43,341 bases of DNA from Paracoccaceae bacterium (GCA_043736475.1 JAYTCN010000464.1:1-43341), one strand, 5' to 3'. Positions 8,267-33,723 are shown, numbered from the stretch's first letter. Numbers and translations are program-made. The notes: generated from the sequence alone by a model not told the origin.

Positions 8267-10693
8267 TTAATACAAGTCGATCCGGAACTTGTTGGCGCGC
8301 CAGTAGACGCCGGCAAGCAAGATCGCGCGTTCCACCGGATCGGTCTCGGCAATTTCTTCACCGCGCAGGTCCAGAACACGTTTCATCTCGGCCCGGCTGC
8401 CGGCACCGAAGGCGCCGTCAACAGCGATTTCGCCGCCAAATTCGTTGACCAGGCGCTGCGAAGCGGCGTTGACGGCGGCAACGGGCAGGTCGGCAAGCAG
8501 CTCGCGCGCCGACGCCGCCGAATCTTTGCCGCTCAGCGCTGCGGCCTTTGCGGCGCGCAGCGCCGCGTCTTCGGGTCCCATGCCGGGGACGTTACCCTCG
8601 GAGATGATCCAGCCCGCGTTGGCGCCGCTCCAGCCGTCGCCCCGCGACAATCCCAAATCGTACCATTCGACGGCGACGGCATGGTTGCCGGATGTGCCGA
8701 GCGCCCCACTGTACCACAGCCTGCCAAGCGAGCCCGGCGCCAGCGGATGACCGCCGCTTGCGGCCTTTTCGAACCAGGTTTCGGCCAATTTCGGGTCACT
8801 TTCCACGCCGGCAAGCCCGTCGAGGTAAACATAGCCAAGATTGTCGAAACCATAGATGTCGCCGCGAGCGGCGGATTCCTTCAGGTATCGAAATCCGCGT
8901 GGCGGGTCCGAATAGGCTGTGTCGGGATCAATGAAGTAGCTGCCCAATTCATTCATCGCGAACGTGTGGCCGAGTTCGAGCGCCCGCGACAAAAGTTCAT
9001 AACCTTCGGTGCGGACCTCGGCGTTACTGCCATAACGCAACAGTTGTTTGCCAAGGGCGTGATAGGCAAACGGGTCGCCGCGCTCGACGCCGACGCGATA
9101 CAAATCCAGCGCCGCTTGCGGTGCCTGTTCGGCGGATTTGCCCGACGTGATGGCTTCCTCCTTGGCGACCAGGACGCCCAGCGCATACCACGCACGGACG
9201 TGGCCGAGGTCCCTGGCTTTCTCAAAATCGGCGCGTGCTGCATCGAACTGCAACAGGGCAAGTTCGGCCCGGCCGCGTTGGTAATGGAATCGGCCCGCTT
9301 CGGGATATGCGGCGATGGCAGCATTGCAGGCCAGGATTGCGGCATCGGGTTCGATTTCGTTCGGATAGAGACCGAGGCCAACCCCATCGGGATCAAGGTG
9401 GTCGCCGGCCGCGCTGTCGCACGGGTCGGCGTCGAGCTTGATTTCAACTTTCGTCTCAACCCCGTTGACCGCCACGCTGAACGTGTCGGCGAGCACCGGC
9501 GCCAGCGGCTGATCTGCTGACGTCGGACTTGGCGCGCTGGTATAGACCAGCTTTTCCAGTTCCGCTGACGCCGCCGAAGGTTGGGTCGCATCGCGGCGCC
9601 GGTTGGCCAGATCGACCAGAGATATGAAACCATTTGCCGGTGGCTGGATAATGGTGATTGTGGCATCCGGATCAGACGCCAGAGCTGCGTTCAGCGCGGT
9701 TCCAATATCCACTTCGCGCTCCAGCGGTGCCTCCAGGACCAGCGTCGGTTGGTCGGGTGAACCGGTTACGGCGCTGACAACACCGGTGGCGACGCTCAAC
9801 ACCAATCCGCGCGTGTCGCCGATGCCGGACGTATCGGGTGTTTCCCGATCGGGGTCACCCGCCGAGCCATTGAGCGTGACGACCTCGACCAGAGTCGAAC
9901 TTTCCCACGGCACTTGTTTGCCTTCCGTCTGGTGGTAAACCGCGCGACGCACGTTTTCCAGCAATTGCCCGACCGGCATATCCGGGTTCGTCCGCGCCGC
10001 TTCGACCAAGGCAGAGGTGAAAGGGCTGTTACCGTTGGCCCCGTCATAAGCCACCATCCCCGGCGCAGTCGCGAACGCCAGCAGCGAATTGATCGGGGCG
10101 GTCAAGGTGTTGAACCCGTCGCGCGTTTCGGCCAACTCGCTCGAAAGGTCGGTGACCAACAAGGTATTGCCGAACGGATTGTTGCGGCAAGAGTCGAGGA
10201 TGACCAATTGCAGCCGCGCCCGCGCACCAAGAATGTTGACAACGCTGCTGAGCGATATTGCTTCAAAGGGCACGTCATAGGCGTTGTCAAGCGCGGCATC
10301 GACCGGAACCAGGTAGTTGCCGCCCGCTATTTGCAGGCCGTGGCCGGCGTAGTAGAAAATCACTTCGCTGTCCTTGTCGACGTCAAACAGGACCCGTCGC
10401 AGCACGCGCTCGAAACCAAACTTATCAAGATTCGTGTAGTCAAAAACGGTGTAACCCCGTTCCCGAAGCAGAGCGCTGACCAGTTCGGCGTCCGCGACGG
10501 CGTTGAGCAGGTCGGGGGCGACCAGATAGTCGCCGTTCCCGATCACGATGGCGTAGTGTTTAAGAACGGGATCCTGCAGATTAACCGGCCGGAACTGTAC
10601 CGGGGCAACCTCGGCGTCCGAATCCTGGGCGGCTGCCGTGCCGAGCAAGCAGGAAAAGCAGATCGCCAGCACGTTCAAAACCAGCTTTGTCAC
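8267..10693 (-). CDS. Exported caspase-family (peptidase C14) protein with Sel1-type repeats and a C-terminal peptidoglycan-binding-like domain
   Basis: A signal peptide ends at ...CLLGTAAAQD. The caspase His/Cys dyad is in context: VIFYYAGHGLQIAGGNYLVPVD and LQLVILDSCRNNPF. There are about 5 Sel1-like repeats (AWYALGVL, AYHALGKQLL, FAMNELGSYF, YGFDNLGYVYLDG...AETWFEKAASGGH, GSLGRLWYSG). The C-terminus RLVNEFGGEIAVDGAFGAGSRAEMKRVL resembles PG_binding_1. The GTG at 10693 sits 7 nt after the SD GGGAGGGG; the ORF-track start is TTG at 10699. Confidence 0.85.
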   Translation of the reverse strand: MTKLVLNVLAICFSCLLGTAAAQDSDAEVAPVQFRPVNLQDPVLKHYAIVIGNGDYLVAPDLLNAVADAELVSALLRERGYTVFDYTNLDKFGFERVLRRVLFDVDKDSEVIFYYAGHGLQIAGGNYLVPVDAALDNAYDVPFEAISLSSVVNILGARARLQLVILDSCRNNPFGNTLLVTDLSSELAETRDGFNTLTAPINSLLAFATAPGMVAYDGANGNSPFTSALVEAARTNPDMPVGQLLENVRRAVYHQTEGKQVPWESSTLVEVVTLNGSAGDPDRETPDTSGIGDTRGLVLSVATGVVSAVTGSPDQPTLVLEAPLEREVDIGTALNAALASDPDATITIIQPPANGFISLVDLANRRRDATQPSAASAELEKLVYTSAPSPTSADQPLAPVLADTFSVAVNGVETKVEIKLDADPCDSAAGDHLDPDGVGLGLYPNEIEPDAAILACNAAIAAYPEAGRFHYQRGRAELALLQFDAARADFEKARDLGHVRAWYALGVLVAKEEAITSGKSAEQAPQAALDLYRVGVERGDPFAYHALGKQLLRYGSNAEVRTEGYELLSRALELGHTFAMNELGSYFIDPDTAYSDPPRGFRYLKESAARGDIYGFDNLGYVYLDGLAGVESDPKLAETWFEKAASGGHPLAPGSLGRLWYSGALGTSGNHAVAVEWYDLGLSRGDGWSGANAGWIISEGNVPGMGPEDAALRAAKAAALSGKDSAASARELLADLPVAAVNAASQRLVNEFGGEIAVDGAFGAGSRAEMKRVLDLRGEEIAETDPVERAILLAGVYWRANKFRIDLY

Positions 10694-10762
10694 GAGCAAC
10701 CCCTCCCGAAATGCCGTGCCGGCCAGACGTTCGCCCGCACGCCCCCAAGGGACGGCAACCGA

Positions 10763-11209: not shown

Positions 11210-11827
11210 TCAGCTCATCGCCTGGAATTCCACCCGGCGGTTTTCGCCGGCATCGGGATCGGTCGTGTTGTAGAGGAATTGTTCGCCCACGCCGATGGCT
11301 TCCAGACGGGTGTCGGCGATGCCGCAATCATTGACAAAAAACCGCTCAACTTCTTCGGCCCGCAACAGCGACAGCCGCGAATTGTACTCCGCTCCGCCGC
11401 TGGCATCGGTATGGCCAATGATCCGAAAATGGTTGATGTCGGTATTGACCATGACCGCGCACAGCTGTTGCAGTTTCGGTCGCTGATCGTCGGTCAGGGC
11501 GGCGGAATCAAATCCAAAAACCACCCGAATATTGACCTGACGCTCAGGCGCCAGGACGGCGTTCACGTCCGCGGCCAATACGGTGCCGCCGGATTCCGCC
11601 GTTATCAATGCCTCTTCGGTTGCGACGGCCGCCTCGACGGCTTCGGCGCCAGCCTCGATCACGCTCAGGGACAGGCCACGGGTCTGGCCGTGAGCAGCGG
11701 CCGAAGTAAACATGTCGCGTTGCTGCAGAAACAGCGCCGTCAGCTCGGCGTCGGTCAGGTCTTGCGCGGCCGCTGCCAGGGGCGAAACCACTACCAGCGC
11801 CGCGGCATAAACGAATGATTTCCTCAT
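11210..11827 (-). CDS. OmpA-family (OmpA_C / peptidoglycan-associated) protein with signal peptide
   Basis: The signal peptide is MRKSFVYAAALVVVSPLAAAAQD. The C-terminal part is VVFGFDSAALTDDQRPKLQQL...FRIIGHTDASGGAEYNSRLSLLRAEEVERFF...GVGE...NRRVEFQA, the classic OmpA_C pattern. Confidence 0.9.
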   Translation of the reverse strand: MRKSFVYAAALVVVSPLAAAAQDLTDAELTALFLQQRDMFTSAAAHGQTRGLSLSVIEAGAEAVEAAVATEEALITAESGGTVLAADVNAVLAPERQVNIRVVFGFDSAALTDDQRPKLQQLCAVMVNTDINHFRIIGHTDASGGAEYNSRLSLLRAEEVERFFVNDCGIADTRLEAIGVGEQFLYNTTDPDAGENRRVEFQAMS

Positions 11828-11921: not shown

Positions 11922-12740
11922 GTGCACCGGGTTTCGGATGCGGACGCCCGGCAACGGGCGCAGATTGGCGGAACCCGTGCAGGCATGACGAATCCGGTTA
12001 CCCTCGTCCCCCGAATTCGGCCTCGCGCCCTTGCCCCGCGCGGTGCTGGCCGAACCCATACCGGGCTGGTGCGGCAGGTCAATGAGGATGCGATCCTGAC
12101 GGACCCCGCCGGTATTCTTTGGGCAGTCGCCGATGGTATGGGCGGCCACGGGCAGGGTGACATTGCTGCCGACGTGGTCATCGACAGCCTGTTGCGGCTG
12201 CCGCATTCGGGTGACCCTCGGCACATGCTCGCCATGGCACTGGAAGACGCCAATGCGATTGTGTTCGACCGCTCGCAGGGTGCGGGCAATGGTATTATGG
12301 GGGCGACGATTGTCGCCGCGGTGGTCGAGGGTGGATCGGCCGTGCTTGCCTGGGTTGGCGACAGCCGGGGCTGCCTGATCCGCGATGGCAAACTGACGCG
12401 GCTGACCAAGGATCATTCGCTGGTACAGGAAATGGTCGATGCCGGCGATTTGCCGCCGGAACTGGCCGAAGCGCACCCGCAGGCAAACGTGGTGACACGC
12501 GCAATCGGCGCGGCGAAGCATGTCGAGATTGATTTCAACCAGACCGCGCTGCGGGCGGGAGACGTGCTGTTGTTATGTTCCGACGGACTGTCGAAATGCG
12601 TTCCCGACGCCCATATCGCGGCGCTGCTGGGAAAGGTCGGTTCGCCGGAGGCCGCCTGCATCGAACTGGTGCGCGCGGCGCTGCGGGCAGGCGGACCCGA
12701 CAATGTTTCGGTCATTGTTGTATTCATGGAAGAGGCCTGA
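11922..12740 (+). CDS. pppA: PP2C-family Ser/Thr protein phosphatase (T6SS PppA-like)
   Basis: GLVRQVNEDA...LWAVADGMGGHGQGDIAADVV...LLCSDGL...GGPDNVSVIVV are PP2C hallmark motifs. The start is either GTG at 11922 or ATG at 11985. It pairs functionally with ppkA and fha elsewhere in the window. Confidence 0.85.
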   Translation: MHRVSDADARQRAQIGGTRAGMTNPVTLVPRIRPRALAPRGAGRTHTGLVRQVNEDAILTDPAGILWAVADGMGGHGQGDIAADVVIDSLLRLPHSGDPRHMLAMALEDANAIVFDRSQGAGNGIMGATIVAAVVEGGSAVLAWVGDSRGCLIRDGKLTRLTKDHSLVQEMVDAGDLPPELAEAHPQANVVTRAIGAAKHVEIDFNQTALRAGDVLLLCSDGLSKCVPDAHIAALLGKVGSPEAACIELVRAALRAGGPDNVSVIVVFMEEA

Positions 12741-12743
12741 GCC

Positions 12744-13619
12744 ATGAAGGCACCAAACCTTATTGCCGTTGCCATTGTCGGCGTCTGTCTGGTGCTGGCG
12801 TTTCTGGCCTGGTCTATTTTTGGCCGCCTGGCGGACGATACAGCGATTGACGGCGAGTTCACGCTGGCGGGACTGCAGGCCGAGCTCGGCTTGCAGAAAG
12901 CCGAGATCGAGGCGCTGCGCGGGCAGGTTGCCGCCGTTCAGGCTGAAATCGACCGGCTGAAAGGCACAGTCGAAATCATGCAGGCTGACCGGGAGCAGAG
13001 CGCGTCCATGCAGCCCGGCGCAGGCTTTGAGGTATTTGGCGAGCCGGAATTCGAAGAAGGGGCCGTTCCGGCGACCGAGGCCTTGAGCGAGCAGATGAAA
13101 CTGGCCAAAGAGCGGTTCAACAAGGGCATCATCCAGCCCAAAAACGCCTTCATGCTGGAAATGCTTGGTCCGCCGAGGCAGGATTATTCGACCGCGTGCC
13201 AGGGCGTATCCAATCCGCGCCTGTCCGCGACGCTGGAGACGCGCCAGATCGGCGGTTTCAAACTGACCATGCTGCGGCCAGCACTCGATTCGGTGGAAAA
13301 GATCATGCTGCGGCTGCAAACCGATGAACCGGAAATCTTTGCCGCACTGGGGACGGCGGGGGGTCTGTGCGTACGATTCATCCGCGGCTCGACCACGTCG
13401 ATTTCCAGCCATTCCTGGGGTGCGGCGGTCGATTTGACGCTTGAAGGCAAACTGGACGCGATGGGCGACGGCGGCACGCAATTCGGTCTGGTCATACTTG
13501 CCGAATTCTTCAACGATGAAGGGTGGTACTGGGGGGCTGGCTACGGGCGCGAGGATTCGATGCATTTCGAGATTGGAGAAGACCTGCTGCGCCAATGGAT
13601 TGCCGGGGGCGAGCTTTGA
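12744..13619 (+). CDS. Membrane-anchored M15-family (VanY / Peptidase_M15_4-like) zinc peptidoglycan peptidase; TagX-like candidate
   Basis: The N-terminal TM helix is LIAVAIVGVCLVLAFLAWSIF, followed by a coiled coil (LQAELGLQKAEIEALRGQVAAVQAEIDRLKG). The C-terminal catalytic motifs are SSHSWGAAVDL (SxHxxGxAxD) and EDSMHFE. The start lies 3 nt after the pppA stop and is preceded by the SD GGAAGAGG. Confidence 0.8.
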   Translation: MKAPNLIAVAIVGVCLVLAFLAWSIFGRLADDTAIDGEFTLAGLQAELGLQKAEIEALRGQVAAVQAEIDRLKGTVEIMQADREQSASMQPGAGFEVFGEPEFEEGAVPATEALSEQMKLAKERFNKGIIQPKNAFMLEMLGPPRQDYSTACQGVSNPRLSATLETRQIGGFKLTMLRPALDSVEKIMLRLQTDEPEIFAALGTAGGLCVRFIRGSTTSISSHSWGAAVDLTLEGKLDAMGDGGTQFGLVILAEFFNDEGWYWGAGYGREDSMHFEIGEDLLRQWIAGGEL

Positions 13620-16114
13620 GCGGCGATGATTTTTCGACGCCCAGAACCGTAATTCGCCCGCGATCAGCGGCGTCGGCACGCCCGCCAGACCCGACGCTGT
13701 TTGACGATCTGGCGCGACCGGTGCTGGCGCTGGCGGAAAGCCTGATGCGCGACCCGGCGCCGAATGCAAACCGGCTGTTGACCGAAGCGCGCGACGTGCT
13801 GGAGGCCTTTGAGAACGAGGCGTTGCGGCGCGGCGTCCACGCGGCCAGCCTTGCCCCGGCCAGATATGCCTTGCTCGTGGTCCTGGACGCCCATGCGCGG
13901 GCCAATCGGCGGATGCCCGTCAAGGCATGGTCAACCGGTGCCATGGCGGCACTGTTCCGCGGCCGCGACACCAATCTGGAGGGGCTGCGCAAAATACGGG
14001 AGCAGGGAGCGCGGGCGGGTGCGGAATATGCCGAGCTTGTGCGCTTCATCGATAAATGTATCGCTGCGGTGGACGGCAGCAGGGCCTACAAACCGGCGCA
14101 AAAGCGCCACGCCAGTGGCCGGGTATTGCTCGCGTTCGCGGCGCTGGCTGTGGTGGTTCTGGCCGGACTGGCGGGCTGGACGGAGTGGCGTTACCGAAAC
14201 GAATTGTTAGCCGAACTACCCGAAGACGCGGCGATTATTGCGGTCGGGGAGAAATTGCAGATTGCAAATTTCGCCGCCGAGATGGATCGCTATGCGGCCA
14301 AGGCCGATTCCGTCGCCGCGCGGGCGGCGGACTCGCCACTGGGGCTTATCCATCGTATTCCCTGGCTCGATCCGGCCAAAGCCGCGCAAGGCCGTCGCGG
14401 TGTGGTGGTGGATGCCCTGCTGCCGAAGCTGATGAGCGATGCGCTGGCGGTTGCGATCGCCTCTGAAGGGTCCGGGATCGCGCTGTACGATACGCTCCGC
14501 GCCTGGTCGATCCTGGCGGGCGAAACCGAATGGAGCCCGGCGTTTTTGCAAGGCTGGCTGGTGTCGCGGGAGGGTCAGGTTCCGGGCCTGGCCGGGCTGG
14601 CGTGGCATGTACCGGCCTTGACCGGTCCGGCCAGGGGAATTGCGGCACCGGACCCGGAATTGCTGGCGCAAGCCCTGGTGTTCGCGGGCGAGGCCAGCGA
14701 AAGCGAGCGCGCCTATCTGGAACTTGAGCGCTCGGAAGCGGCTGCGGATCTGCCACCCTGGAACGCGGTCGCGGCCGTGCCGCGCATCGATGTTGTGCTG
14801 ACGCGCCGATCCGGTCTGGCAATGGGTGATGGCATCGCCGGGCTGTTCAGCGCGACCGGCTGGGATTGGGCGGCAGCCGGGGGCACTGACCAGGCCTTAG
14901 AAGTGGCGCGGGCAGAAACGGCGAGACTGCGGATTGCCGCGCCAGCAGCCACCAGTGATCCGGCCGGGCAGGTTCTGGACCTGCTGCAAAAGGCCACGAT
15001 CAAAACGTGGAAGGATTTTCTTGCCGACCTCCGCGTCAAGCCGTTCTCGGATCAACCGGGCGCGGTGCTGATATCCGGCATTCTCGGCTCATCGGGTTCG
15101 CCTTTGAGCCAATTGGTCAACGAAGTCTGGCAGCAGGCGGGCGGGAATGACCGCACACGATCGCACCCGAACCAGCTGAAGATCGCCACCGAGTTCGGGA
15201 CGACACTGCAGTTTGTCGAACAGGGCAAGATGGCCGATATTTCCCAGATGTTTGCCGCGCTGAACGTGGCGCTGGCTTCGATCGAGGTCGATCAGGAAGT
15301 CGGCGTCCGACGACTGATGGACGTTCAAACGCGAGCCAATTCGATTGCCACCCTGCAGCAGGCACCGGTTCTGGTCGGGCAGATTGTCGAGGATGTGCTG
15401 GCCCAGACCAGCGCATCGAGCCAGGATCTGGTGGACAATGAATTCAACCTGTTGTGGCGCAGCCAAGTCTATCCGCACTGTGGCGAGGTCATGCAATCTT
15501 TCTATCCTTTCGCCGAGGGTGCCGATCTGGGCCGGGCGGATTTTGCCGGCCTGATCGGGCCGGGCGGCGTGCTCGACGGATTCTACACCCGGCAACTGGC
15601 GCGGCTGATGGACACGAGCGCGCATCCGTGGCGTTGGAAACCCGAAGCCCGACTGGCCGGATTCACGCCTGACTCGGCCGCCTTTTTTGAAATATTGGCG
15701 GCCGTTCGGGCTGCCTATTTCGGCAACGGCGCCAGCCTTGACACAGCGGTCAGACTTTCGGCGCTGGCCGAACGCGGTTCGGCGCAAATTTCGATTGGCG
15801 GGGCGAGTGCGCCGGTCGTGACCACCGGCGAACCGGCGGCTTTGGCCTGGCCGGGCCCGCAGCCGGAACTCGGGGTTTCGATTGTCTTTGAAACCGGGAC
15901 CGGCCAGCAATCACGCGATGCTCCGGGTGAATGGGGCCTTTTGCATTTGCTGGACGGATTGCGGATCAGGCAGCGCGATGAAGGTCAGCGGTTCCTGGTT
16001 GATCTGCGCTCGGGCGATGCAAGGCTGTTCGTCGAAATGGCGTTCGATGACCCCGCCAATCCGGTCTCGGGCCGCAGCCTGCTGCGCGGACTGGTCTGCC
16101 CGGCGTTATTGTGA
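13616..16114 (+). CDS. DotU(TssL)-like N-terminal domain + single TM + IcmF(TssM)-like periplasmic domains; an ATPase-less TssL/TssM hybrid paralog
   Basis: The ORF is 13523..16114. The probable TTG start at 13616 overlaps the M15 TGA stop (TTGA); an alternative ATG lies at 13595. The N-terminus SGDDFSTPRTVIRP and ARYALLVVLDAHA parallel TssL in this window (DDPFGLSEDLGRTRIRP, AAWCVGALLDDLA). The TM helix is VLLAFAALAVVVLAGLAGW. The C-terminal part is collinear with TssM: YPFAEGADLGRADFAGLIGPGGVLDGFYTRQLARLMDTSAHPWRWK versus YPFSPGSSIDVNVADFAKIFGPGGLIDVFTNDKLAPYIDTTQKPWAWR. I saw no Walker A motif. Confidence 0.8.
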   Translation: MSGDDFSTPRTVIRPRSAASARPPDPTLFDDLARPVLALAESLMRDPAPNANRLLTEARDVLEAFENEALRRGVHAASLAPARYALLVVLDAHARANRRMPVKAWSTGAMAALFRGRDTNLEGLRKIREQGARAGAEYAELVRFIDKCIAAVDGSRAYKPAQKRHASGRVLLAFAALAVVVLAGLAGWTEWRYRNELLAELPEDAAIIAVGEKLQIANFAAEMDRYAAKADSVAARAADSPLGLIHRIPWLDPAKAAQGRRGVVVDALLPKLMSDALAVAIASEGSGIALYDTLRAWSILAGETEWSPAFLQGWLVSREGQVPGLAGLAWHVPALTGPARGIAAPDPELLAQALVFAGEASESERAYLELERSEAAADLPPWNAVAAVPRIDVVLTRRSGLAMGDGIAGLFSATGWDWAAAGGTDQALEVARAETARLRIAAPAATSDPAGQVLDLLQKATIKTWKDFLADLRVKPFSDQPGAVLISGILGSSGSPLSQLVNEVWQQAGGNDRTRSHPNQLKIATEFGTTLQFVEQGKMADISQMFAALNVALASIEVDQEVGVRRLMDVQTRANSIATLQQAPVLVGQIVEDVLAQTSASSQDLVDNEFNLLWRSQVYPHCGEVMQSFYPFAEGADLGRADFAGLIGPGGVLDGFYTRQLARLMDTSAHPWRWKPEARLAGFTPDSAAFFEILAAVRAAYFGNGASLDTAVRLSALAERGSAQISIGGASAPVVTTGEPAALAWPGPQPELGVSIVFETGTGQQSRDAPGEWGLLHLLDGLRIRQRDEGQRFLVDLRSGDARLFVEMAFDDPANPVSGRSLLRGLVCPALL

Positions 16115-16144: not shown

Positions 16145-16780
16145 CTACAGCGTGGCCGACAAGCCGGCCGCTATTTGCCGCATCGCCGCTATTCTTTCCG
16201 CCAGCAAGGCAAGTTGCGGGTCAAGAATGGCGGTCGAGCTGCCTTCCGACAACAGCAGCCCGCGGGCCGAACCGAAAAATTCGGCTTGTTGCGAAGCAGC
16301 GGTGACGGCGTTTTCCATCTCGACGGCGTTGCGCTGACCCCGTTCCATGGCGCGTGCTTGCGCTTCCGGACCAGCGGCGGCGATGGCCGCTTGCCGTTCT
16401 GCCACCAAGGCCCGCATCGATGCGATCGCAACTTCGAGTTCGGCATTGGTGGTGGCGATATCCTGCAGAACCTGATCGAGAACCGCCTCCTGCGAGGCAA
16501 ATTCCGCCTGCAGTTGGCGCACATAGCCACCGGCCGCCGCACCGCCAAGCCGACCCAGTTGTGCACCCTGAAATGCCCCTTCCGCCCCGCCGGCGAGACC
16601 GCCCAGCACGGCACCGGCAGCGGCACCGAACAGGCTGCCCTCGCCGACGGTCGATTGCAGGCGCTCGGTGCTTTCGCGCATCTCGCGCTCGGCGGCGGTT
16701 TCCGGTTCCCAGGTCAAATAGGCACCGTCGGTGCAGGCGGCGAGCAGTGCGGCGGCGAGCAAGACTGAAGCTGATTTCAT
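16145..16780 (-). CDS. Lipoprotein with glycine-zipper segment and coiled-coil C-terminal region
   Basis: The sequence is MKSASVLLAAALLAAC (lipobox), then a Gly zipper GAAAGAVLGGLAGGAEGAFQGAQLGRLGGAAAGG, then heptad-like A/E/Q-rich sequence. It lies 9 nt downstream of the beta-barrel gene on the same strand. Confidence 0.7.
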   Translation of the reverse strand: MKSASVLLAAALLAACTDGAYLTWEPETAAEREMRESTERLQSTVGEGSLFGAAAGAVLGGLAGGAEGAFQGAQLGRLGGAAAGGYVRQLQAEFASQEAVLDQVLQDIATTNAELEVAIASMRALVAERQAAIAAAGPEAQARAMERGQRNAVEMENAVTAASQQAEFFGSARGLLLSEGSSTAILDPQLALLAERIAAMRQIAAGLSATL

Positions 16781-16789
16781 CGCCGCCCC

Positions 16790-17734
16790 CTAAAACCGGT
16801 AGCCGAAATTGACTTCGACCCCGTCAAGATCGGTGTTGCTGAACGTATAGGTCAGGCCCAGCCGCATCGAATCCCAGGTGATGCCGTTGTCGGAGTTCTG
16901 GGTGCCGAGCGACACGGCGACGTCGGTCGAGTTCTGGGTATAGACCGCGCCGCCGGTGTAATGGGTGTTGACGACCGAACCTTCCCAGCTGACCGGCAGG
17001 TCGAAAATCACCAAGCTGGTCGGGCCGGACAGGCCGATGCCGTTGCGGAAAATGACGTTGGATATGTCGTATTCGCCGGCGGTAGCGCCGAAAGAGCGGA
17101 TCGTGCTGATCTGGTTGCCGATGGAAACATCCAGATTGCCGATTTGTGTGGCGTAATTCGAGACCACCGACGCACCCGCCAGCCAGGCATTGATCGCCTC
17201 GCCGGTGTCGGATGAGACCCCGACGCGAACCGTCGGCGTCACGATCCAGTTGTCGAGCACGGCGAGCCGGACCCCGGCCCCGAGCGACGCCGAATATATC
17301 CGCGCCGTGCCGGAGCCATAGGTGGTGATATCGGTGTAGGCGAGCGGAAAATCAAAGACCAGGGCATAGCGCGGGTCGGCCAGCGGCCTGGAGTACGAGA
17401 ACGGCAGTTCGGTTTGCCTGACCGAGTATTCCGCCGATGAAACATAAGTATAGCCGAGACCGATGCCGATCAGTGGCGGCAGTTGTGCGCCGCCGGCACC
17501 GGCGGAGACGAAGTCGGGCGACGCGCCGACAAACGAGCCGAGCCGGAAATCGCCCTCGACCATCCGGTGTTGCAGGCTGAGCGGGTTGCCGGCCACCGGG
17601 CTGGTTGGAAAGAGGTAGACACAGGCGGCCTCGGAAAAGTCGTTTTGACCGCAATAATCCTGCGCCGGGGCCGGACTGGCCAGAAACAGCGTCGCGGCGA
17701 TACCGAATTTAGACAGGGCTGACCGAAAACCCAT
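16790..17734 (-). CDS. Predicted outer-membrane beta-barrel protein
   Basis: The likely start is MGFRSALSKFGIAATLFLASPAPAQD (signal peptide) at 17734, preceded by the SD GGAGAGG. Amphipathic strands alternate throughout (RLGLTYTF, VEVNFGYRF), and the C-terminal residue is Phe, as in Bam-dependent OMPs. The ORF track extends to 17815. Confidence 0.7.
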   Translation of the reverse strand: MGFRSALSKFGIAATLFLASPAPAQDYCGQNDFSEAACVYLFPTSPVAGNPLSLQHRMVEGDFRLGSFVGASPDFVSAGAGGAQLPPLIGIGLGYTYVSSAEYSVRQTELPFSYSRPLADPRYALVFDFPLAYTDITTYGSGTARIYSASLGAGVRLAVLDNWIVTPTVRVGVSSDTGEAINAWLAGASVVSNYATQIGNLDVSIGNQISTIRSFGATAGEYDISNVIFRNGIGLSGPTSLVIFDLPVSWEGSVVNTHYTGGAVYTQNSTDVAVSLGTQNSDNGITWDSMRLGLTYTFSNTDLDGVEVNFGYRF

Positions 17735-18002
17735 GTGACCTCTCCGTTGCTTGCCTGATGACGGATGAGCGGGAGCGGTCGGCCCCCGGTAACTTTGCCG
17801 CGAGACTGCTCGCAACGCGCGACAAAAACAAGCCCCTGTTTTGGCAATCCCTTATTTGGAATCAAGACGTTGCAAGCGGCGTTGAATGCGCGGTTTGCCA
17901 AGGGAAATTGCGCCGCGACCCGAATCCGGTGCAAACTGGCGGCAAGTGTGCTAGGCCCAAGATCTGCAAGCGCAGCAATCACATTCCGGGAACAGCCCGT
18001 CC

Positions 18003-19544
18003 GTGCGGCATTTGATTTTCGTCCTGTTGTTCTTGGCGTCACCGCTGGCCGCCGCAGCCGAGGGCCGTGTGGCGCTTCTGATCGGCAATGCAAGCTATGA
18101 GTTGCCCGGGCTGGTGCTGAAAAATCCTGGCAATGATGCGGTGGCGATGGCCGACACTTTGCGCGGCATCGGCTTTCAGGTCACTGAAGTCCTCGATGCG
18201 ACCGGCGCCGCGATGGAACAGGCGCTGGCGGAGTTTGCCGCCGCCGCCCAGGGTGCCGAAGTGGCGCTGTTCTATTACGGCGGCCACGGGGTCGAGATCG
18301 GTGGCGAGAACTACCTGATCGGCACAGATTTTGCCGATCTTTCGCAGGGTTTGGCGCTATCGGCGCTGCCGGTTGCCAGGATCCGCGAAGCGATGAGCGC
18401 GGCCGACCCCGGCATTGGGCTGATCATCCTCGATGCCTGCCGCGACAATCCGTTTGCCCAGGCCGGACTTGCCGCGCCGGGCCTGGCCCGCGCGCAAGGC
18501 GCGCTTGGGTTGCTGATTGCCTTTGCCGCCGAGCCCGGAAAGATCGCGTTCGACGGCAGTGGCGACAACTCGGTTTTCACCGAGGCGCTGCTCGACAATA
18601 TCACCGCCGACGGCGTCGAGGTGCGGATCATGCTTGGCCGGGTGCGCCAACAGGTGGCGATGGCCACCTCGGGCAATCAGGCGCCGCTGGTTGAAGACGG
18701 CACCATCGGCGAAAACTATCTGGGATCGCCTGAAGCCGGCGCGCTGGCTGCCGATGCCTTTGCCGAGGAAATGGCGCTCTGGCGGGTTGCCAGCACGTCG
18801 CCAGACGCAGGCAGGGTGCGGGAATATCTGGTAAAATATCCCGACGGCCTGTTCGTGGCCTTTGCCCGTGACCGGGCGGCCGAGCTGGACCGGCTGGCCA
18901 ACAAGTCGCTCGCCAACAGCACGTTTGCTGATCTGGTCAAATCCGACCCGCAGCGGATCGGTGCGGCACTGCTGGCGCTGGGTTTCTTGCCTGCCGGGGC
19001 GCATTCCGCAAGCGAACTGGCCGCCGGTTTTGCCGCCTATAGCGCCGGTCAGCCGGTTCCGGCCAATGCCAACGTGGCCCAATTATATGCCGATGCAACC
19101 AGCCGGATGGCCTTCCTGGCCGCGGCCACGGCGCAGAAGATCCGGACCGATCTGGTGGCGCTGTCGGCGGTGCAGCGGACGCTGGAGATCAGCGAGGTCG
19201 CGTTGTCCGAGATCCGGACCATTGCCGAGTCCAACCCCGATGCCGAGCCGGTTTTGCAGGCAGCCGAGGCCGATATGGCTGAAATCCGGGCGAGCCGCGA
19301 ACGGATCATGCGGCGCCTTGATGGTACGCGGACATATTACGATGATTTGCTGAAGGCAGCTTACCGGAATTTTGCCTCCGAAACCCGGCAGGTTGGCGAA
19401 AGACAGCAAACCAATGCCAGCGCATCGCCTGTGGAAAAAACTCTGGCCGCCGATATTTCACGATTTGCCCGGCAGGTTGCGGAGCTGACCCCCGATACCG
19501 AGGGGGCCATGGCCTGGCTGGCAGATTTCGTGCCGAAGAGTTAG
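18003..19544 (+). CDS. Exported caspase-family (peptidase C14) protein, second copy
   Basis: The signal peptide is MRHLIFVLLFLASPLAAAAEG (GTG start). The dyad contexts are VALFYYGGHGVEIGGENYLIGTDF and GLIILDACRDNPF. About 270 aa at the C-terminus are A/L-rich and helical, with no domain I can name. Confidence 0.85.
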   Translation: MRHLIFVLLFLASPLAAAAEGRVALLIGNASYELPGLVLKNPGNDAVAMADTLRGIGFQVTEVLDATGAAMEQALAEFAAAAQGAEVALFYYGGHGVEIGGENYLIGTDFADLSQGLALSALPVARIREAMSAADPGIGLIILDACRDNPFAQAGLAAPGLARAQGALGLLIAFAAEPGKIAFDGSGDNSVFTEALLDNITADGVEVRIMLGRVRQQVAMATSGNQAPLVEDGTIGENYLGSPEAGALAADAFAEEMALWRVASTSPDAGRVREYLVKYPDGLFVAFARDRAAELDRLANKSLANSTFADLVKSDPQRIGAALLALGFLPAGAHSASELAAGFAAYSAGQPVPANANVAQLYADATSRMAFLAAATAQKIRTDLVALSAVQRTLEISEVALSEIRTIAESNPDAEPVLQAAEADMAEIRASRERIMRRLDGTRTYYDDLLKAAYRNFASETRQVGERQQTNASASPVEKTLAADISRFARQVAELTPDTEGAMAWLADFVPKS

Positions 19545-20266: not shown

Positions 20267-22993
20267 TCATTCAAACGTATAGGTAAAGCCTTTCTCGTCC
20301 GCCCCGACGGTGACTTTTGCCAGCGGTTTACCCTCCAGCGTGCGGTTCAGCACCCCGCGGCTGAGTTCGGGCAAGAGCGTGTTGGTCAGGATGGCGTCGA
20401 TCATCCGCCCGCCCGATTCGATTTCGGTGCAGCGGGCCTTGATCAGGTCCATCACCCCGTCGCCGACCACCAGTTCGGCGTCCTGGCCCGAGCGCAGGCG
20501 GTTGCCGATCTTGCGCAGCTGGTGCCCGGCGATCATCTCGATCATTGAATCGGACAAAGGGTAATACGGGATGGTGATCAGGCGGCCGAGCAAAGCTGCC
20601 GGGAAGACTTTCAGCAAGGGTGCGCGCAGGGCTTTGTTCAGCGCCTCCTGATCGACCGCTGAACGGCCGTTCCCGGTCATGTGCATGATCTCGGCCGAGC
20701 CGACATTCGAGGTCAGGATGATCAGGGTGTTCTTGAAATCGATCCGCCGTCCTTCGCTGTCATCCATCATGCCTTTGTCGAAGACCTGGAAGAAAATCTC
20801 GTGCACGTCGGGATGGGCCTTTTCGACCTCGTCGAGCAGGATCACCGAATAGGGTCGCCGACGCACCGCCTCGGTCAGGATGCCGCCCTTGCCATAGCCG
20901 ACGTAGCCCGGCGGCGCGCCTTTCAGGGTGGAAACGGTATGCGCCTCCTGAAACTCGCTCATGTTGATCGAGATCAGGTTCTGCTCGCCGCCATAGAGGG
21001 TTTCGGCCAGCGCCAGCGCGGTTTCGGTCTTGCCGACCCCCGACGGGCCGCAGAGCATGAACACCCCGACCGGTTTTTCCGGTGCGCCCAATCCGGCCCG
21101 GGTGGTCTGCACCCGGCGGGCGATCTGTTCCATCGCGTGATCCTGGCCGACCACCCGTTCCGACAGGATCTGGGCCAACTGCAGGGCTTTTTCGGTCTGG
21201 CTGGTCAGCATGCGACCCATCGGGATGCCGGTCCAGTCCTGCGCCACCGAGGCGACGGCGTTTTGATCGACCGAGGGCAGGATCAGCGGGGTTTCGCCCT
21301 GGGCCACGGCCAGTTCGGCCATCAATGCTTTCAGCCGGGCCAGATTGGCGTCGCGGTCGGGCGCGGGTTCGGCGGGCGCTTCGGCCGGTTCCTTGGCATC
21401 GGCTTCAGCAAGGCCAGCTTCGCCGTCGTTTGCTTCTGTATCCGCTGTCGCATCCAGCGCGACGCCCTCGCCGCGCAGGGTCGCCCGCAGCTCGAGAATG
21501 TCTTTCACCAGCGCCTTTTCGGCGTCCCAGCGAATTTGCGCCGCCGCCAAAGCCTCGCGAACCGTTACCAGCCCGGCTTCGACTTTCGCCCGGCGTTCGG
21601 CGGCGTCGATGCCGATCGCTTCCTCGCGCCCGATGATGCCTTCCTCGACCAGCAGCGCCGATTCGCGCCGCCGCAAATCCTCCACTTCCGCCGGGGTCGC
21701 GTGCTGGCTGATCGCCACCCGGGCGCAGGCGGTGTCGAGCAGGCTGATCGCCTTGTCGGGCAATTGGCGGGCCGGGATGTAGCGGTGCGACAGGTGGACG
21801 GCGGCTTCCAGCGCCTCGTCGAGAATCTGGACCTGATGGTGTTTTTCCAGCACGCCAGCGACGCCGCGCAGCATCAGCACCGCCGATTCCTCGGAGGGTT
21901 CCTCGATCTTGACCACCTGGAAGCGCCGGGTCAGGGCCGGGTCTTTCTCGATATGTTCCTTGTATTCGGCCCAGGTCGTGGCCGCGACCGTGCGCAACTC
22001 GCCGCGCGCCAGCGCCGGTTTCAGCAGGTTCGCCGCATCGCCGGTACCTGCCGCACCGCCGGCGCCGATCAGGGTATGGGCTTCGTCGATGAACAGGATC
22101 ACCGGGGTTTCGGAAGACTGCACCTCGTCGATCACCGATTTCAGCCGTTTTTCGAATTCACCTTTCACCGATGCCCCGGCCTGCATCAGGCCGATGTCGA
22201 GCATGTGCAAGGCGACATTCTGCAGCCCTGGCGGCACGTCGCCCTGGGCGATGCGCAGGGCAAAGCCTTCGACGACCGCGGTCTTGCCGACCCCGGCCTC
22301 GCCGGTCAGGATCGGGTTGTTCTGGCGGCGGCGCATCAGCACGTCGATGATCTGGCGAATTTCGGGGTCGCGGCCGACCACCGGGTCGATCTTGCCCGCT
22401 TTCGCCCGCTCGGTCAGGTTGGTGGCATATTGCGCCAGCGCCGATTTGCCGCCGGGAGCCGGGCGCGGGGTTTTTTCGGAAGTGGCCGAACCGCCGCCCT
22501 CGAGCGACTGGACCAAGAGGTCGTCCAGCTGTTCGGCCATTGCGTCGGGGTCGATTTTCGCGAATTCGAGGCTGATTTTCAGCAGCAATGCCTCGAGAAC
22601 CGGTTTCTTCATCGCGCCGAGCAGGACATAGGCCGAGCGGACTTCCTGCTGGGAAAACTTCAGCGCGGCAAAACTCCAGGCGGTCTCGACCGCATCGAAA
22701 ATATGCTCGGAAAAATCCGACAGCGACGTGGAGCCATGCGGGAGCCTGTCGGTCATCCGTGCCATGTCGGAAGCAAGCCGGGCGGAATCGATGCCGGCGG
22801 CTTGCAGCAGGATGGCGAAATCGGAGCGCTCCGACAGCGCCAGCTGCTCGATCAGATGGACCAGCTCGACATAGGGATTGCCGCGCATCTTGGCGGTGTC
22901 GGCGGCGGCCTTGAAGGCACGCAGGCAGGTCGGATTCAGTTTTCCGACCAATTCCTTGCGTTTGAAACTTTCCTGCGATCCGCGTTCTTGCAT
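20267..22993 (-). CDS. clpV: T6SS AAA+ ATPase ClpV (TssH)
   Basis: The protein is 908 aa. It has two Walker A boxes (GEAGVGKTAVVEG and CGPSGVGKTETA), a Clp N-domain and a ClpB-type D2-small domain. The SD GGAGG lies upstream of the ATG at 22993. Confidence 0.95.
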   Translation of the reverse strand: MQERGSQESFKRKELVGKLNPTCLRAFKAAADTAKMRGNPYVELVHLIEQLALSERSDFAILLQAAGIDSARLASDMARMTDRLPHGSTSLSDFSEHIFDAVETAWSFAALKFSQQEVRSAYVLLGAMKKPVLEALLLKISLEFAKIDPDAMAEQLDDLLVQSLEGGGSATSEKTPRPAPGGKSALAQYATNLTERAKAGKIDPVVGRDPEIRQIIDVLMRRRQNNPILTGEAGVGKTAVVEGFALRIAQGDVPPGLQNVALHMLDIGLMQAGASVKGEFEKRLKSVIDEVQSSETPVILFIDEAHTLIGAGGAAGTGDAANLLKPALARGELRTVAATTWAEYKEHIEKDPALTRRFQVVKIEEPSEESAVLMLRGVAGVLEKHHQVQILDEALEAAVHLSHRYIPARQLPDKAISLLDTACARVAISQHATPAEVEDLRRRESALLVEEGIIGREEAIGIDAAERRAKVEAGLVTVREALAAAQIRWDAEKALVKDILELRATLRGEGVALDATADTEANDGEAGLAEADAKEPAEAPAEPAPDRDANLARLKALMAELAVAQGETPLILPSVDQNAVASVAQDWTGIPMGRMLTSQTEKALQLAQILSERVVGQDHAMEQIARRVQTTRAGLGAPEKPVGVFMLCGPSGVGKTETALALAETLYGGEQNLISINMSEFQEAHTVSTLKGAPPGYVGYGKGGILTEAVRRRPYSVILLDEVEKAHPDVHEIFFQVFDKGMMDDSEGRRIDFKNTLIILTSNVGSAEIMHMTGNGRSAVDQEALNKALRAPLLKVFPAALLGRLITIPYYPLSDSMIEMIAGHQLRKIGNRLRSGQDAELVVGDGVMDLIKARCTEIESGGRMIDAILTNTLLPELSRGVLNRTLEGKPLAKVTVGADEKGFTYTFE

Positions 22994-23068: not shown

Positions 23069-23138
23069 ACTTCTTCGTTCCGGGCAAAAGCCGAAACGCC
23101 AGCTTGCCGAGATTTTGTCACTGCCGGAGACAATACGA

Positions 23139-24986
23139 ATGATAGCCCCGCTTCCCGGTGACATTTTCAAGCCCGGCCAGGTGCTGAACAATACCTATGA
23201 AATCGAGGGCATCCTCGGTCGCGGTGGCACCGGCGAGGTTTACCGGGCCCGCAACCAGATTTCCGGCCGGATCGTGGCACTGAAGGCGCTGAACGCCGAA
23301 TTTTCCGGCAATGCCGATTATCTGGAACTGATGAAGCGCGAAGAGGAAATGCGCGACATCATCCACGATGCGGTGGTGCGCTATTCCGACAACAGCCGCA
23401 CCGCCGACGGCCATGTGTTTCTGGTGATGGATTTTGTCGACGGACCGTCGCTGAACGAATTGCTGCATCGCGGCAACGCCAGCCCGCGCGACCTGCTGAT
23501 CGTCTGCCACCGGGTGGCGGGCGGTCTGGTGGCCACGCATGCGCGCCAGATCGTCCACCGCGACCTTTCGCCCGACAACATCATCCTGCGCAAGGGCGAC
23601 CCGGCGCAGGCGGTCATTATCGATTTCGGCATCGCCAAGGATGAGTCGGTGGGTGCGCGCACCATTGTCGGCAACGATTTTGCCGGCAAATACGAATATG
23701 CCGCACCCGAACAGATGGACGGGCGCGCGGAGCCGCGCTCGGACTTGTATGCCCTGGGAGCCTCGCTCCTGGCCACCTATCGCGGCCAGGTGCCGAATGT
23801 CGGCAGCACGCCGGGCGAAGTGGTGCGGCGCAAGGGCAAGGCGCTGGATACTGCGGGTGTGCCCGAGCCGTTAAAGGAACTCATCGACTGGCTGACCCAG
23901 CCCGACGCGGCGCAGCGCCCGGCCAACGCGGCGGCCGTGGTGACGCATCTGGACGAAGTTCTGAAGCCAAAGGGGCGGCAAACAGTATTGACCAAGCCCG
24001 TCGCCCAAAAGTCGCGGCGCGGACGGCGCGGGCTGCTTTTCCTGGTTCCGGTGCTGGCGATCGTCATTGCGGCGGTGGTATTGCTGCCAGCTGAACTGTC
24101 GCGGTGGTTCCCCGACGCCACGGTCGAAACGCCGCCGGTTGTGCCGGAACAGCCGGTGGAACCGAGTCCGGAATCGCCACAGCCGCCACCCGACGACGCG
24201 GCGACGGACACGACGCCACCGCCCGCCGAAGTGTTACCCCCGCCGAAACCCGATCTGCAGGTGGCGGCGATTCTTGATCTTCTGGGCAAATTGAGGGCAT
24301 GTGGCCCGCTGGCGGTGGATTCTGGCGGCCTGACCGCGCTGGCTCCCGCCGCGGCGGTCATCGTGTCGGGCAAGGTCGCCAGCGAGGCCGAGCGCGACAA
24401 GGTGATCGCCGCGCTGGCCAACGTCGCCGACGGTCGCCAGGTCCGCTTTGCCGCAACGCTGCTGACCGCAGAAATCTGCCGCATCCTCGAACTTTTGCCC
24501 GAAACGGCCGGCGGCCAGGTGTCAACGGCATTGAGCCACGACGGCGGCCAGGGCAATTTTACCGGTGTCTATTCAATTGGCGACATGATCATCGCCGATA
24601 TCTTGCTGTCCGAAACCATGGCCGACCAGCACATCTGGGCGTTTCTGGTCGACAACAAGACCGCGCTGAACATCTTGCCCAATGTGAATTTTCCCGAAAC
24701 AAGGGCCGGAAATCTGGGAAATTCCGCAGCCGGGTTGCGCAAAGTCCGGCTGCTTTACACCAGCGCCGAACGCAAGGTGCCCGATCTGTGGGGATACGAG
24801 GTGACCGAAGCTGACATCGGCAAGAAACTGCTGGTCGTCATGCTCTCGCCGCAACCGCTGTTCCCCGGTGCCCGTCCGGCGACGGAATCGGTTGAATCGA
24901 TGGCCGAAGCTCTCGAGCAAGTACTTCTGCAGCCCGAATTCAAGCTGACCGCGATTTCCACCAGTCTGCTCGACCTGCGCGAATGA
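23139..24986 (+). CDS. ppkA: Transmembrane Hanks-type Ser/Thr protein kinase (T6SS PpkA-like)
   Basis: Kinase motifs are present: GRGGTGEVYRARN (Gly loop), VALK, HRDLSPDNIIL, DFGIAK and APEQ. A TM helix (LLFLVPVLAIVIAAVVLL) and a Pro-rich linker follow, then a periplasmic domain of about 240 aa. The ATG is at 23139; the ORF-track TTG is at 23115. Confidence 0.9.
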   Translation: MIAPLPGDIFKPGQVLNNTYEIEGILGRGGTGEVYRARNQISGRIVALKALNAEFSGNADYLELMKREEEMRDIIHDAVVRYSDNSRTADGHVFLVMDFVDGPSLNELLHRGNASPRDLLIVCHRVAGGLVATHARQIVHRDLSPDNIILRKGDPAQAVIIDFGIAKDESVGARTIVGNDFAGKYEYAAPEQMDGRAEPRSDLYALGASLLATYRGQVPNVGSTPGEVVRRKGKALDTAGVPEPLKELIDWLTQPDAAQRPANAAAVVTHLDEVLKPKGRQTVLTKPVAQKSRRGRRGLLFLVPVLAIVIAAVVLLPAELSRWFPDATVETPPVVPEQPVEPSPESPQPPPDDAATDTTPPPAEVLPPPKPDLQVAAILDLLGKLRACGPLAVDSGGLTALAPAAAVIVSGKVASEAERDKVIAALANVADGRQVRFAATLLTAEICRILELLPETAGGQVSTALSHDGGQGNFTGVYSIGDMIIADILLSETMADQHIWAFLVDNKTALNILPNVNFPETRAGNLGNSAAGLRKVRLLYTSAERKVPDLWGYEVTEADIGKKLLVVMLSPQPLFPGARPATESVESMAEALEQVLLQPEFKLTAISTSLLDLRE

Positions 24987-31380: not shown

Positions 31381-32399
31381 CCGCCAAGCGCGGCGAGCCG
31401 CTGACGGGAATAGATTTTTTTCAACTGTTGCGGTTGCTGGAGACTGGCGAAAAGGTTTTTGGCCGAGGTGGCGGACCGGCGCGGGAACCGGCCCGGCTGG
31501 GCCAGCAGGTTCGGCAGAATTTTGCGGTGCAGGATGTCGCGTCGCTGCAGCTGGAAACGGCGGCAGGTCCGGCGAAGGTGCGGGTGATGAACCTTGGGCT
31601 TTTGGGTCCGGAAGGACCGATGCCCCTGCATATGACGCGCTGGGCGCTCGACCGCCTGTCGCAGCGCTGGTTTTCCGGCACCGACGGCGGCCAGACCAGC
31701 GACACGACGTTTGTCGATTTTGCCGATTTATTGCAGCATCGGATGATTGCGCTGTTCTATCGGGCCTGGGCCGACACCAGACCGGAGGTTCAGAGCGGAC
31801 GCGGCAACGGTGACCGCTTTGGCAGCATGCTGCGCGCTTTGGGCGGGATCGGCCTGCCCGGCAGCGAAAGCCGGGATGAACTGGACGCGCTGCGCGGCAG
31901 GCAGGCAGCGGCGCTGGCCCATCAGGTGCACGGGCCCGAGCGCCTGACCAAATTCGTCGCTGCCGCCATTTCCGCCCCGGTGCAACTGGTGGAATATGTC
32001 GGCAACTGGGTGTCGATCCCGGCAAATCTTTGCTCGAGGCTGGGCGCTTCGCACAACCGGCTTGGCAAAGGTGCCGTGGCGGGCGGGCGAACGTTTCAGC
32101 GGCAAAACAAGATCGAGCTGCGTATCGGACCGCTGGGGTTGCAGCGGTTTGCCGAATTTGCTGCAAAAGGCCCCGCTTCGCGCACTTTGCGCCAGGCGGT
32201 TCTGGCCAATCTGGGCCACGGGATTGACGTCGATGTCCGGCTGGTGTTGCGCAAGGAAGAAGTGCCGGACGCAACCATCGGCAACGCGCAATTGTCGCGG
32301 ACCGCCTGGCTTGCACCCAAGCGCCTGACCGATTCCAGCGAGTTGCGGATCGGTCATGTTGCGGGACTGGCGCGCCCGGCCGCACGGGCTGCCGCATGA
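31344..32399 (+). CDS. tssG: T6SS baseplate protein TssG
   Basis: IDFFQLLRLLE, LLGPEGPMPLHMT and the FYRAWA motifs are present. It overlaps the tssF end by 37 nt. Confidence 0.9.
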   Translation: MADNARQPIPDLTAKRGEPLTGIDFFQLLRLLETGEKVFGRGGGPAREPARLGQQVRQNFAVQDVASLQLETAAGPAKVRVMNLGLLGPEGPMPLHMTRWALDRLSQRWFSGTDGGQTSDTTFVDFADLLQHRMIALFYRAWADTRPEVQSGRGNGDRFGSMLRALGGIGLPGSESRDELDALRGRQAAALAHQVHGPERLTKFVAAAISAPVQLVEYVGNWVSIPANLCSRLGASHNRLGKGAVAGGRTFQRQNKIELRIGPLGLQRFAEFAAKGPASRTLRQAVLANLGHGIDVDVRLVLRKEEVPDATIGNAQLSRTAWLAPKRLTDSSELRIGHVAGLARPAARAAA

Positions 32400-33670: not shown

Positions 33671-33723
33671 CGGTGACGATCCTGCCGAACTTCCGGACGA
33701 CCCGAGCAGAAGAAAGGCCGTGA

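Follow-up and report, generated by a model that had tools for sequence, protein, structure and literature searches.

A probable TagM orthologue in a Paracoccaceae type VI secretion cluster combines a TssL-like domain with a TssM-like periplasmic arm

The DNA analyzed here, 43,341 nucleotides from a Paracoccaceae bacterium (GCA_043736475.1 JAYTCN010000464.1:1-43341; hereafter the window), has a G+C content of 62% and holds a type VI secretion system (T6SS) cluster that includes a threonine-phosphorylation pathway. The subject of this report is tagM, the last gene of a small operon pppA-tagY-tagM, whose product consists of a DotU/TssL-like cytoplasmic helical domain (a weak but real likeness), one transmembrane (TM) helix and a TssM-like periplasmic arm, without the NTPase module of TssM. 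This architecture is confirmed by the agreement of sequence profiles, predicted structures and conservation across the family. We are highly confident that the protein is an orthologue of TagM, a bitopic inner-membrane accessory protein of the "group 3" alphaproteobacterial T6SS. Its putative role as an adaptor that ties the cell-wall module TagY/TagN to the TssJLM membrane complex is put forward more tentatively, at slightly under even odds, and to the explanation as a whole, orthologue and adaptor mechanism taken together, we assign a probability of about 0.5.

An intact open reading frame (ORF) of 863 codons runs on the plus strand from GTG 13523 to the stop at 16114. These were the limits proposed by a first-pass annotation of the window, of which the intact frame stands, whereas the start is probably TTG 13616 or, as an alternative, ATG 13595. 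Relatives were collected in a family scan using one genome per species, in which 132 species had a relative and 80 loci were kept, context counts being made over 84 loci. TTG 13616 is the likeliest start because the N-termini of homologues align at L32 of the 863-aa ORF, because this TTG and the TGA stop of the upstream tagY share a TTGA overlap, and because 74 of 77 related loci have a tagM start codon −4 to +6 nt from the tagY stop. The true gene thus most likely spans 13616–16114 and encodes 832 aa. Two numberings are used for TagM, that of the 863-aa ORF (from GTG 13523) and that of the 832-aa form (from TTG 13616). The gene call on record, at 797 aa, begins at V67 (window 13523–13721); this start is too late, the N-terminal motif and the beginning of the DotU-like domain being lost, and late starts of this kind may be the reason that the DotU match is missing in several database copies of the TagM family.

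The periplasmic part of TagM was compared with the TssM encoded in the same window (36391–39933, plus strand; TIGR03348 1121 bits; Pfam IcmF-related_N, IcmF-related and IcmF_C), with which it aligns in BLASTP at E 4e-26. Using family alignments built from the related loci fetched, hhalign joins the TagM and TssM families with a probability of 99.95% (E 1e-37, 672 aligned columns), residues 143–832 of TagM (832-aa numbering) being collinear with residues 411–1180 of TssM, from just ahead of the TM helix to the last residue. On aligned columns lie ALYDTLRAWSILAG of TagM and LGALKTYQMATGL of TssM, the YPF...PW.W block, and the NP(x)n-CPxxL ending, which the two proteins have in common together with a conserved Cys pair. 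The arm contains the IcmF-related region, corresponding to the helical arm of TssM (14414–15136, plus strand; aa 298–538; PF06761, 97.5 bits), an assignment shared by hhalign to TssM and by Foldseek matches to TssM chains. Overlapping its end is a strongly conserved block, GGxDRxRSH...FVEQGxM...LNVAL...IVEDVLAQ (15116–15415, plus strand), apparent both from the conservation index and from invariant columns in the family alignment. Near the C-terminus lies the IcmF_C beta domain (15830–16045, plus strand; aa 770–841; PF06744, 40.1 bits), part of a larger C-terminal domain, and the protein tail ends ...NPVSGRSLLRGLVCPALL.

Profile and fold comparison relate this larger domain by homology to the C-terminal, TssJ-binding domain of TssM in E. 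coli. The TagM family profile matches that domain (4Y7L/4Y7M) at about E 5e-10, and Foldseek recovers the isolated TssM C-terminal domain (4Y7L, 4Y7M, 4Y7O) with TM-scores of 0.77–0.80 and, with the full-length model, TssM chains from two solved membrane complexes (6IXH and 6HS7; E 3e-10). By both hhalign and Foldseek, TagM therefore has a TssM-type periplasmic arm with a C-terminal domain of the TssJ-binding type, TssJ binding itself being a prediction. TagM is not a TssM in the strict sense: identity to the co-resident TssM is only 24–26%, and the TIGR03348 score of 180.5 bits is below the equivalog cutoff of 388.15.

The likeness of the N-terminal domain to TssL is much fainter. A pairwise BLASTP comparison of TagM with the TssL of the window, the long form with DotU and OmpA domains (35060–36394, plus strand; Pfam, NCBIfam; N-terminus MVKDDPFGLSEDLGRTRIRP), gave nothing significant and was discarded as proof of kinship, so that the DotU assignment rests on profiles and structure. 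Pfam DotU (PF09850) scores 28.8 bits on aa 61–180 of the 863-aa ORF (gathering cutoff 27) and 32.9 bits (E 6e-8) in a scan restricted to the first 195 aa, the match spanning profile positions 3–123 of 205. The TagM family profile matches Vibrio cholerae TssL (4V3I) at E 9e-4. For the N-terminal model, the top Foldseek matches are the TssL cytoplasmic domains 6Y4R, 3U66, 4V3I and 7THW (probability 0.98–1.0, TM-score 0.57–0.66), and over both AlphaFold models, full-length and N-terminal, TssL-domain matches have TM-scores of 0.57–0.69. Accordingly placed at 13697–14080 (plus strand; aa 59–186 of the 863-aa ORF), the domain comprises six helices. An hhalign comparison of the TagM N-terminal family with the TssL family, used solely to show collinearity, gave only E 0.024 and a low probability, with a collinear alignment that places ARYALLVVLD on AAWCVGALLDD. 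The TIGR03349 score, 24.4 bits against a cutoff of 89.95, is again below threshold.

Between these two parts lies a single TM helix (14117–14185, plus strand; aa 199–221), the sole Kyte-Doolittle segment above 1.6, which aligns with TM3 of TssM; exactly one such segment is present in 71 of 82 family members, and the AlphaFold model has a helix at 199–230. About 170 cytoplasmic residues precede it and there is no signal peptide, both this and the TM assignment coming from a hydropathy scan only. The full-length AlphaFold model has a mean pLDDT of 84, with values below 50 for aa 1–53, and a separate model of the N-terminal 205 aa reaches a pLDDT of 87. Pfam finds no IcmF-related_N (PF14331, P-loop) match in TagM, the TssM of the window scoring 284 bits, and a regular-expression search for Walker A returned none in TagM and a single chance match among the 82 family members. 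There is no OmpA match either, some 640 periplasmic residues being TssM-homologous instead. The four elements of the first-pass annotation of this protein, namely a TssL-like first part, one TM helix, a remainder collinear with the periplasmic part of TssM (including all three of the sequence matches quoted for it) and the loss of the TssM NTPase module, are thus borne out, the first as a weak likeness; a cryptic P-loop domain was also looked for in TagM and none was found.

What did not hold was the suggested novelty of this architecture. The same layout was named TagM in 2025, in an in silico study of Sinorhizobium fredii USDA257: a cytosolic DotU domain, one TM helix and two IcmF domains in about 820 aa without a signal peptide (PMC11872809; Microb Biotechnol 2025;18:e70112; preprint 10.1101/2023.12.14.571490). 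The same paper describes TagN (signal peptide and OmpA domain, 248 aa) and TagY (M15 peptidase), and its authors suggest that these proteins help to anchor the system to peptidoglycan (PMC11872809). This kind of protein is already known and named from an in silico description, and the architecture itself is no longer a discovery. The window protein has the N-terminal DotU domain, the single TM helix without a signal peptide, the two IcmF domains at about 820 aa, the gene order and the sequence orthology that characterize TagM. The gene order was compared with the locus of S. fredii SMH12, the strain of the paper being USDA257: clpV, a 248-aa OmpA ORF, pppA, a peptidase gene and an 840-codon ORF reproduce the module of the window. 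In tblastn, TagM aligns to S. fredii and S. americanum plasmids with 45% identity over 94–95% of its length. TssW of Acidovorax (mBio 2025), considered as a possible equivalent, is an unrelated outer-membrane protein of Betaproteobacteria clusters and was set aside. The literature searched contained no further paper on TagM.

Among Rhodobacterales and Rhizobiaceae, at least 132 species have a TagM relative, including members of Tabrizicola, Rhodobacter, Rhodovulum, Paracoccus, Sulfitobacter, Shimia, Ruegeria, Amaricoccus and other genera, together with Rhizobium, Sinorhizobium and Ensifer; the nearest relative of the window protein, at 70% identity, comes from a Paracoccaceae metagenome-assembled genome (MAG). 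A tblastn search of plasmids returned 38 records, mostly from Rhizobium and Sinorhizobium, with 94–96% coverage and about 45% identity, annotated as "ImcF-related family protein". When a library of 1.84 billion representative proteins was searched, the family stood out as about 25 clusters of full-length sequences (779–863 aa) with scores of 536–1196 bits; next, after a steep fall, came canonical TssMs (about 1180 aa), none above 270 bits. Lower-scoring matches of 800–900 aa, examined as possible further DotU-IcmF fusions, turned out to be canonical TssMs cut short, which have part of the P-loop domain and lack DotU, and no second DotU-IcmF family was seen in this library. In an alignment of 24 TagM sequences, columns average 54% identity and dozens of residues are invariant. 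By the conservation index TagM evolves faster than the co-resident TssM, and its periplasmic arm is better conserved than its cytoplasmic domain, with a peak at residues 501–600 (832-aa form). In the five 20-residue windows over this peak the index is 0.67–0.73 for TagM and 0.57–0.88 for the aligned TssM, TagM equaling or exceeding TssM only in 501–560 (0.71–0.72 versus 0.57–0.71).

In the window, tagN (11210–11827, minus strand; Pfam OmpA, 59.5 bits), encoding an OmpA-type peptidoglycan-binding protein, is divergent from pppA (11922–12740, plus strand), the first gene of the operon, which encodes a PP2C Ser/Thr phosphatase (Pfam PP2C, NCBIfam Stp1 family). Then follows tagY (12744–13619, plus strand; Pfam PF13539), with its stop coupled to the tagM start; its product, an M15_4 peptidoglycan peptidase resembling TagX, is anchored in the membrane and has a coiled-coil stalk. 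Of the 84 loci, 78 have tagN and 77 have pppA, and in 77 tagY lies upstream of tagM, most exceptions being loci cut by a contig end. All three contigs picked via TagY rather than TagM carry tagM directly downstream, in a TagY search with 777 matches past the threshold in which the matches listed were close relatives. Canonical tssM, tssL, tssK and tssJ are within 10 kb in 52–56 of the 84 loci and at a greater distance in the Rhizobium-type layout, so that TagM supplements the core set and does not replace it. That it might build a second or alternative membrane complex is improbable, since its gene nearly always comes with one complete canonical tssJ/L/M set and no second core set. A locus of a different kind is found in an Amaricoccus MAG (JAXMDF010000005.1, 7411–12460), in which tagN, pppA, tagY and tagM stand alone, followed by a PIN toxin pair; either the module has become detached there or it is a relic.

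One further likeness to TssL concerns the extreme N-terminus. The disordered leader of TagM (pLDDT below 50, aa 1–53) contains a P-R-T-V-I-R-P motif (13640–13660, plus strand) that resembles G-R-T-R-I-R-P of TssL, and the correspondence noticed at first pass, SGDDFSTPRTVIRP versus DDPFGLSEDLGRTRIRP, is real in the window protein and its clade; it is absent, however, from two thirds of the family. R-T-x-I-R-P is present in 26 of the 84 TagM sequences, that of the window included, and missing from the other 58, which comprise all sequences from Rhizobium, Sinorhizobium, Paracoccus, Sulfitobacter, Shimia and Ruegeria. A family-wide role as a putative phosphosite was rejected on this count; the motif is a clade-specific feature at most and, given its distribution, cannot be central to the function of the family. 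In TssL of this T6SS group, on the other hand, 53 of 55 loci have the leader DDPFGLxxDAGRTR[IV]RP at the N-terminus, before the DotU domain (window 35060–35120), and its near-invariance suggests that a partner, possibly Fha or PpkA, binds or phosphorylates it. The literature examined contains nothing on this TssL leader. In Agrobacterium, PpkA phosphorylates the N-terminal Thr14 of TssL (DLPpTVVEI) and Fha binds the phosphorylated form (PMC3953482), a site that differs in sequence from RTRIRP. This precedent makes a phospho-switch at the TagM motif conceivable.

From this material we propose the following mechanism. TagM would build no machine of its own and would instead join or dock on the canonical TssJLM complex through its TssM-like arm and TssL-like domain, acting as the adaptor for the co-encoded cell-wall module, the endopeptidase TagY and the peptidoglycan binder TagN. 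TagY and TagM would be made from one mRNA on which stop and start overlap or nearly abut, and peptidoglycan would be opened and re-anchored only at the site of T6SS assembly. The placement of pppA in the operon could tie production of the module to the threonine-phosphorylation switch, and in the window clade the RTxIRP motif may put TagM itself under that switch. That the periplasmic domain of TssM can serve in this way is known from enteroaggregative E. coli, in which it recruits and activates the lytic transglycosylase MltE. For TagY a functional precedent exists in TagX of Acinetobacter, an inner-membrane L,D-endopeptidase essential for the T6SS, for which control in space by another T6SS component was proposed (PMC5061870); both enzymes belong to the Pfam family PF13539, are anchored in the inner membrane and are encoded in a T6SS cluster.

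Several observations weigh against the adaptor mechanism. TagX-type enzymes work in Acinetobacter, Burkholderia and Ralstonia clusters that have no TagM (PMC5061870), and an adaptor of this kind is therefore not generally needed. The DotU-like cytoplasmic domain is the least conserved part of TagM (index 0.24–0.66), which weakens the idea of a precise baseplate contact. In the Amaricoccus locus the 10 kb to each side of the module are free of T6SS core genes. Gene linkage fits equally well with TagM as a plain structural subunit or as a regulator, and the literature searched reports no experiment on TagM in any organism.

Of these other roles, a structural one is unlikely in our estimate. TagM would then be a stoichiometric protomer of the membrane complex, a single-chain equivalent of TssL plus TssM that co-polymerizes with TssM, for example in one of two non-equivalent TssM positions per asymmetric unit, independently of peptidoglycan remodeling. 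Its collinearity with the complete periplasmic domain of TssM, including TM3, the C-terminal domain of TssJ-binding type, the Cys pair and the CPxxL tail, is what such a protomer would look like, as are the TssL fold on its cytoplasmic side, the nearly constant presence of canonical TssL and TssM genes in the same loci and the retention of TagM in the window although tssJ is missing. A subunit packed among TssM chains is harder to reconcile with an identity of only 24–26% to the co-resident TssM and with its faster evolution, and the great majority of T6SSs assemble the complex without any such protein; moreover, the tight tagY-tagM junction points to TagY rather than TssM as the partner. A role in the threonine-phosphorylation pathway, akin to the capping or regulation of TssLM also raised at first pass, is in our view still less likely. 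As a regulator or decoy co-expressed with the "off" phosphatase PppA, TagM would present its TssL-like face, in some clades with RTxIRP, to PpkA, Fha or TssK and its TssM-like arm to TssJ or TssM and, having no NTPase, would cap or sequester components and so tune firing. The operon shared with pppA in 77 of 84 loci, the match of P-R-T-V-I-R-P to the invariant G-R-T-R-I-R-P of TssL, the phosphorylation of a TssL Thr by Agrobacterium PpkA with subsequent Fha binding (PMC3953482) and the loss of the NTPase module all point this way. The motif, however, is missing from 58 of the 84 family members, the Agrobacterium site DLPpTVVEI is another sequence and phosphorylation of RTRIRP is undocumented, and the best-conserved parts of TagM are periplasmic.

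More elements are combined in a scenario for the window clade only, which we regard as very unlikely. TagM would there be a second membrane receptor, switched by PpkA/PppA and bound by Fha, and as a single-chain TssL-TssM would nucleate the membrane complex and license TagY to cut peptidoglycan at that place; in a cluster without tssJ, some of the connection to the outer membrane might fall to it as well, shared with the products of clade-specific genes for a lipoprotein and an outer-membrane protein (OMP). Finally, TagM could be a decaying or functionless paralogue, the remnant of a duplicated tssL-tssM pair, as strong divergence from TssL and TssM and the lost NTPase might suggest. Its conservation effectively excludes this: more than 80 loci, from two orders and at least 132 species, keep the frame intact, the columns of the 24-sequence alignment average 54% identity, length and operon position are maintained, and the structure is predicted with confidence. 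The adaptor mechanism remains our preferred explanation.

The remainder of the window holds the core genes tssA, tssB, tssC, hcp, tssE, tssF, tssG and tssK (Pfam/NCBIfam), along with clpV (20267–22993, minus strand), ppkA (23115–24986), fha (32396–33670) and, directly in succession at 39915–42588, tagF, a DUF2169 adaptor gene and a thiolase-like gene. No tssJ was found in the 43 kb by tblastn with two TssJ proteins from related loci: fha is directly followed by tssK (32396–35055, junction 33670/33724), at the position where 52 related loci have tssJ. No vgrG was detected in the window either; in 61 related loci it comes right after tagM, and the spike gene of this cluster is therefore elsewhere or beyond the window end. 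Between tagM and clpV lie genes for a glycine-zipper lipoprotein with weak TagQ-like and YiaD-like matches (16145–16780, minus strand), a 341-aa protein without a Pfam match that is possibly an OMP (16790–17815, minus strand) and a caspase-family (Peptidase_C14) protein (18003–19544, plus strand). This insert occurs only in the closest relatives of the window (two loci, and partly a third) and might be related to the missing tssJ. A link of TagM to the neighboring OMP and lipoproteins, as suggested at first pass, finds no support in the wider family, since those genes accompany tagM in only 3–4 of the 84 loci, in the clade of the window itself, the conserved partners being pppA, tagY and tagN on the other side. 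Caspase-like Peptidase_C14 genes (window 8267–10699, minus strand, and 18003–19544, plus strand) recur by 33 of the 84 related T6SS loci, often just upstream of tagN and in one case fused to Sel1 repeats; we know of no described link between such proteins and the T6SS.

How the T6SS membrane complex crosses the cell wall and is re-anchored to it is only partly understood, the known routes being a dedicated hydrolase, as with TagX in Acinetobacter, or a recruited housekeeping enzyme, as with MltE in E. coli. The tagN/pppA/tagY/tagM module is conserved also in tractable rhizobia, and TagM, as the only member of it that is homologous to the core membrane complex, is a concrete candidate for the missing adaptor. 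The family further suggests that the TssM periplasmic arm can work on another cytoplasmic "chassis" that has no NTPase, which bears on the purpose of the NTPase in TssM. The additions made here are incremental: TagM is extended from rhizobia to Paracoccaceae, the module and its tight tagY-tagM coupling are defined, and a clade-specific TssL-like motif is described.

Among known systems, TssM/IcmF (TIGR03348) is homologous to TagM from just before TM3 to the C-terminus, through the helical arm, IcmF_C, the Cys pair and the CPxxL tail, but has in addition a TM1-TM2 hairpin and, between TM2 and TM3, the IcmF-related_N P-loop domain, whereas TagM has neither and only one TM helix. A TssM-family protein without a functional Walker A is familiar from Francisella: PdpB is IcmF-like and works without NTPase activity. 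PdpB, however, retains the TssM-type N-terminal membrane topology and, as the only TssM in its system, has DotU as a separate partner, whereas TagM comes in addition to TssM and carries a DotU-like domain in the same chain. With TssL/DotU (PF09850, TIGR03349) TagM shares a helical cytoplasmic fold followed by a single TM helix, after which long-form TssL has an OmpA domain and TagM a TssM arm in its place; the sequence likeness is marginal (Pfam 29–33 bits), and the DDPFGL leader conserved in TssL is absent from TagM. TagL, the TssL-associated peptidoglycan anchor of E. coli, is characterized by an OmpA/MotB-type domain that TagM does not have, a role that falls here to TagN and the long-form TssL. 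TagX systems have no TagM, and TagM itself, unlike TagX, is no enzyme. Closest by far is TagM of S. fredii. The window protein differs from it in belonging to a Paracoccaceae-like genome and to a cluster without tssJ, and in carrying the RTVIRP motif, which is absent from the Sinorhizobium and Rhizobium proteins; the two share their architecture and the neighbors tagN, pppA, tagY and clpV.

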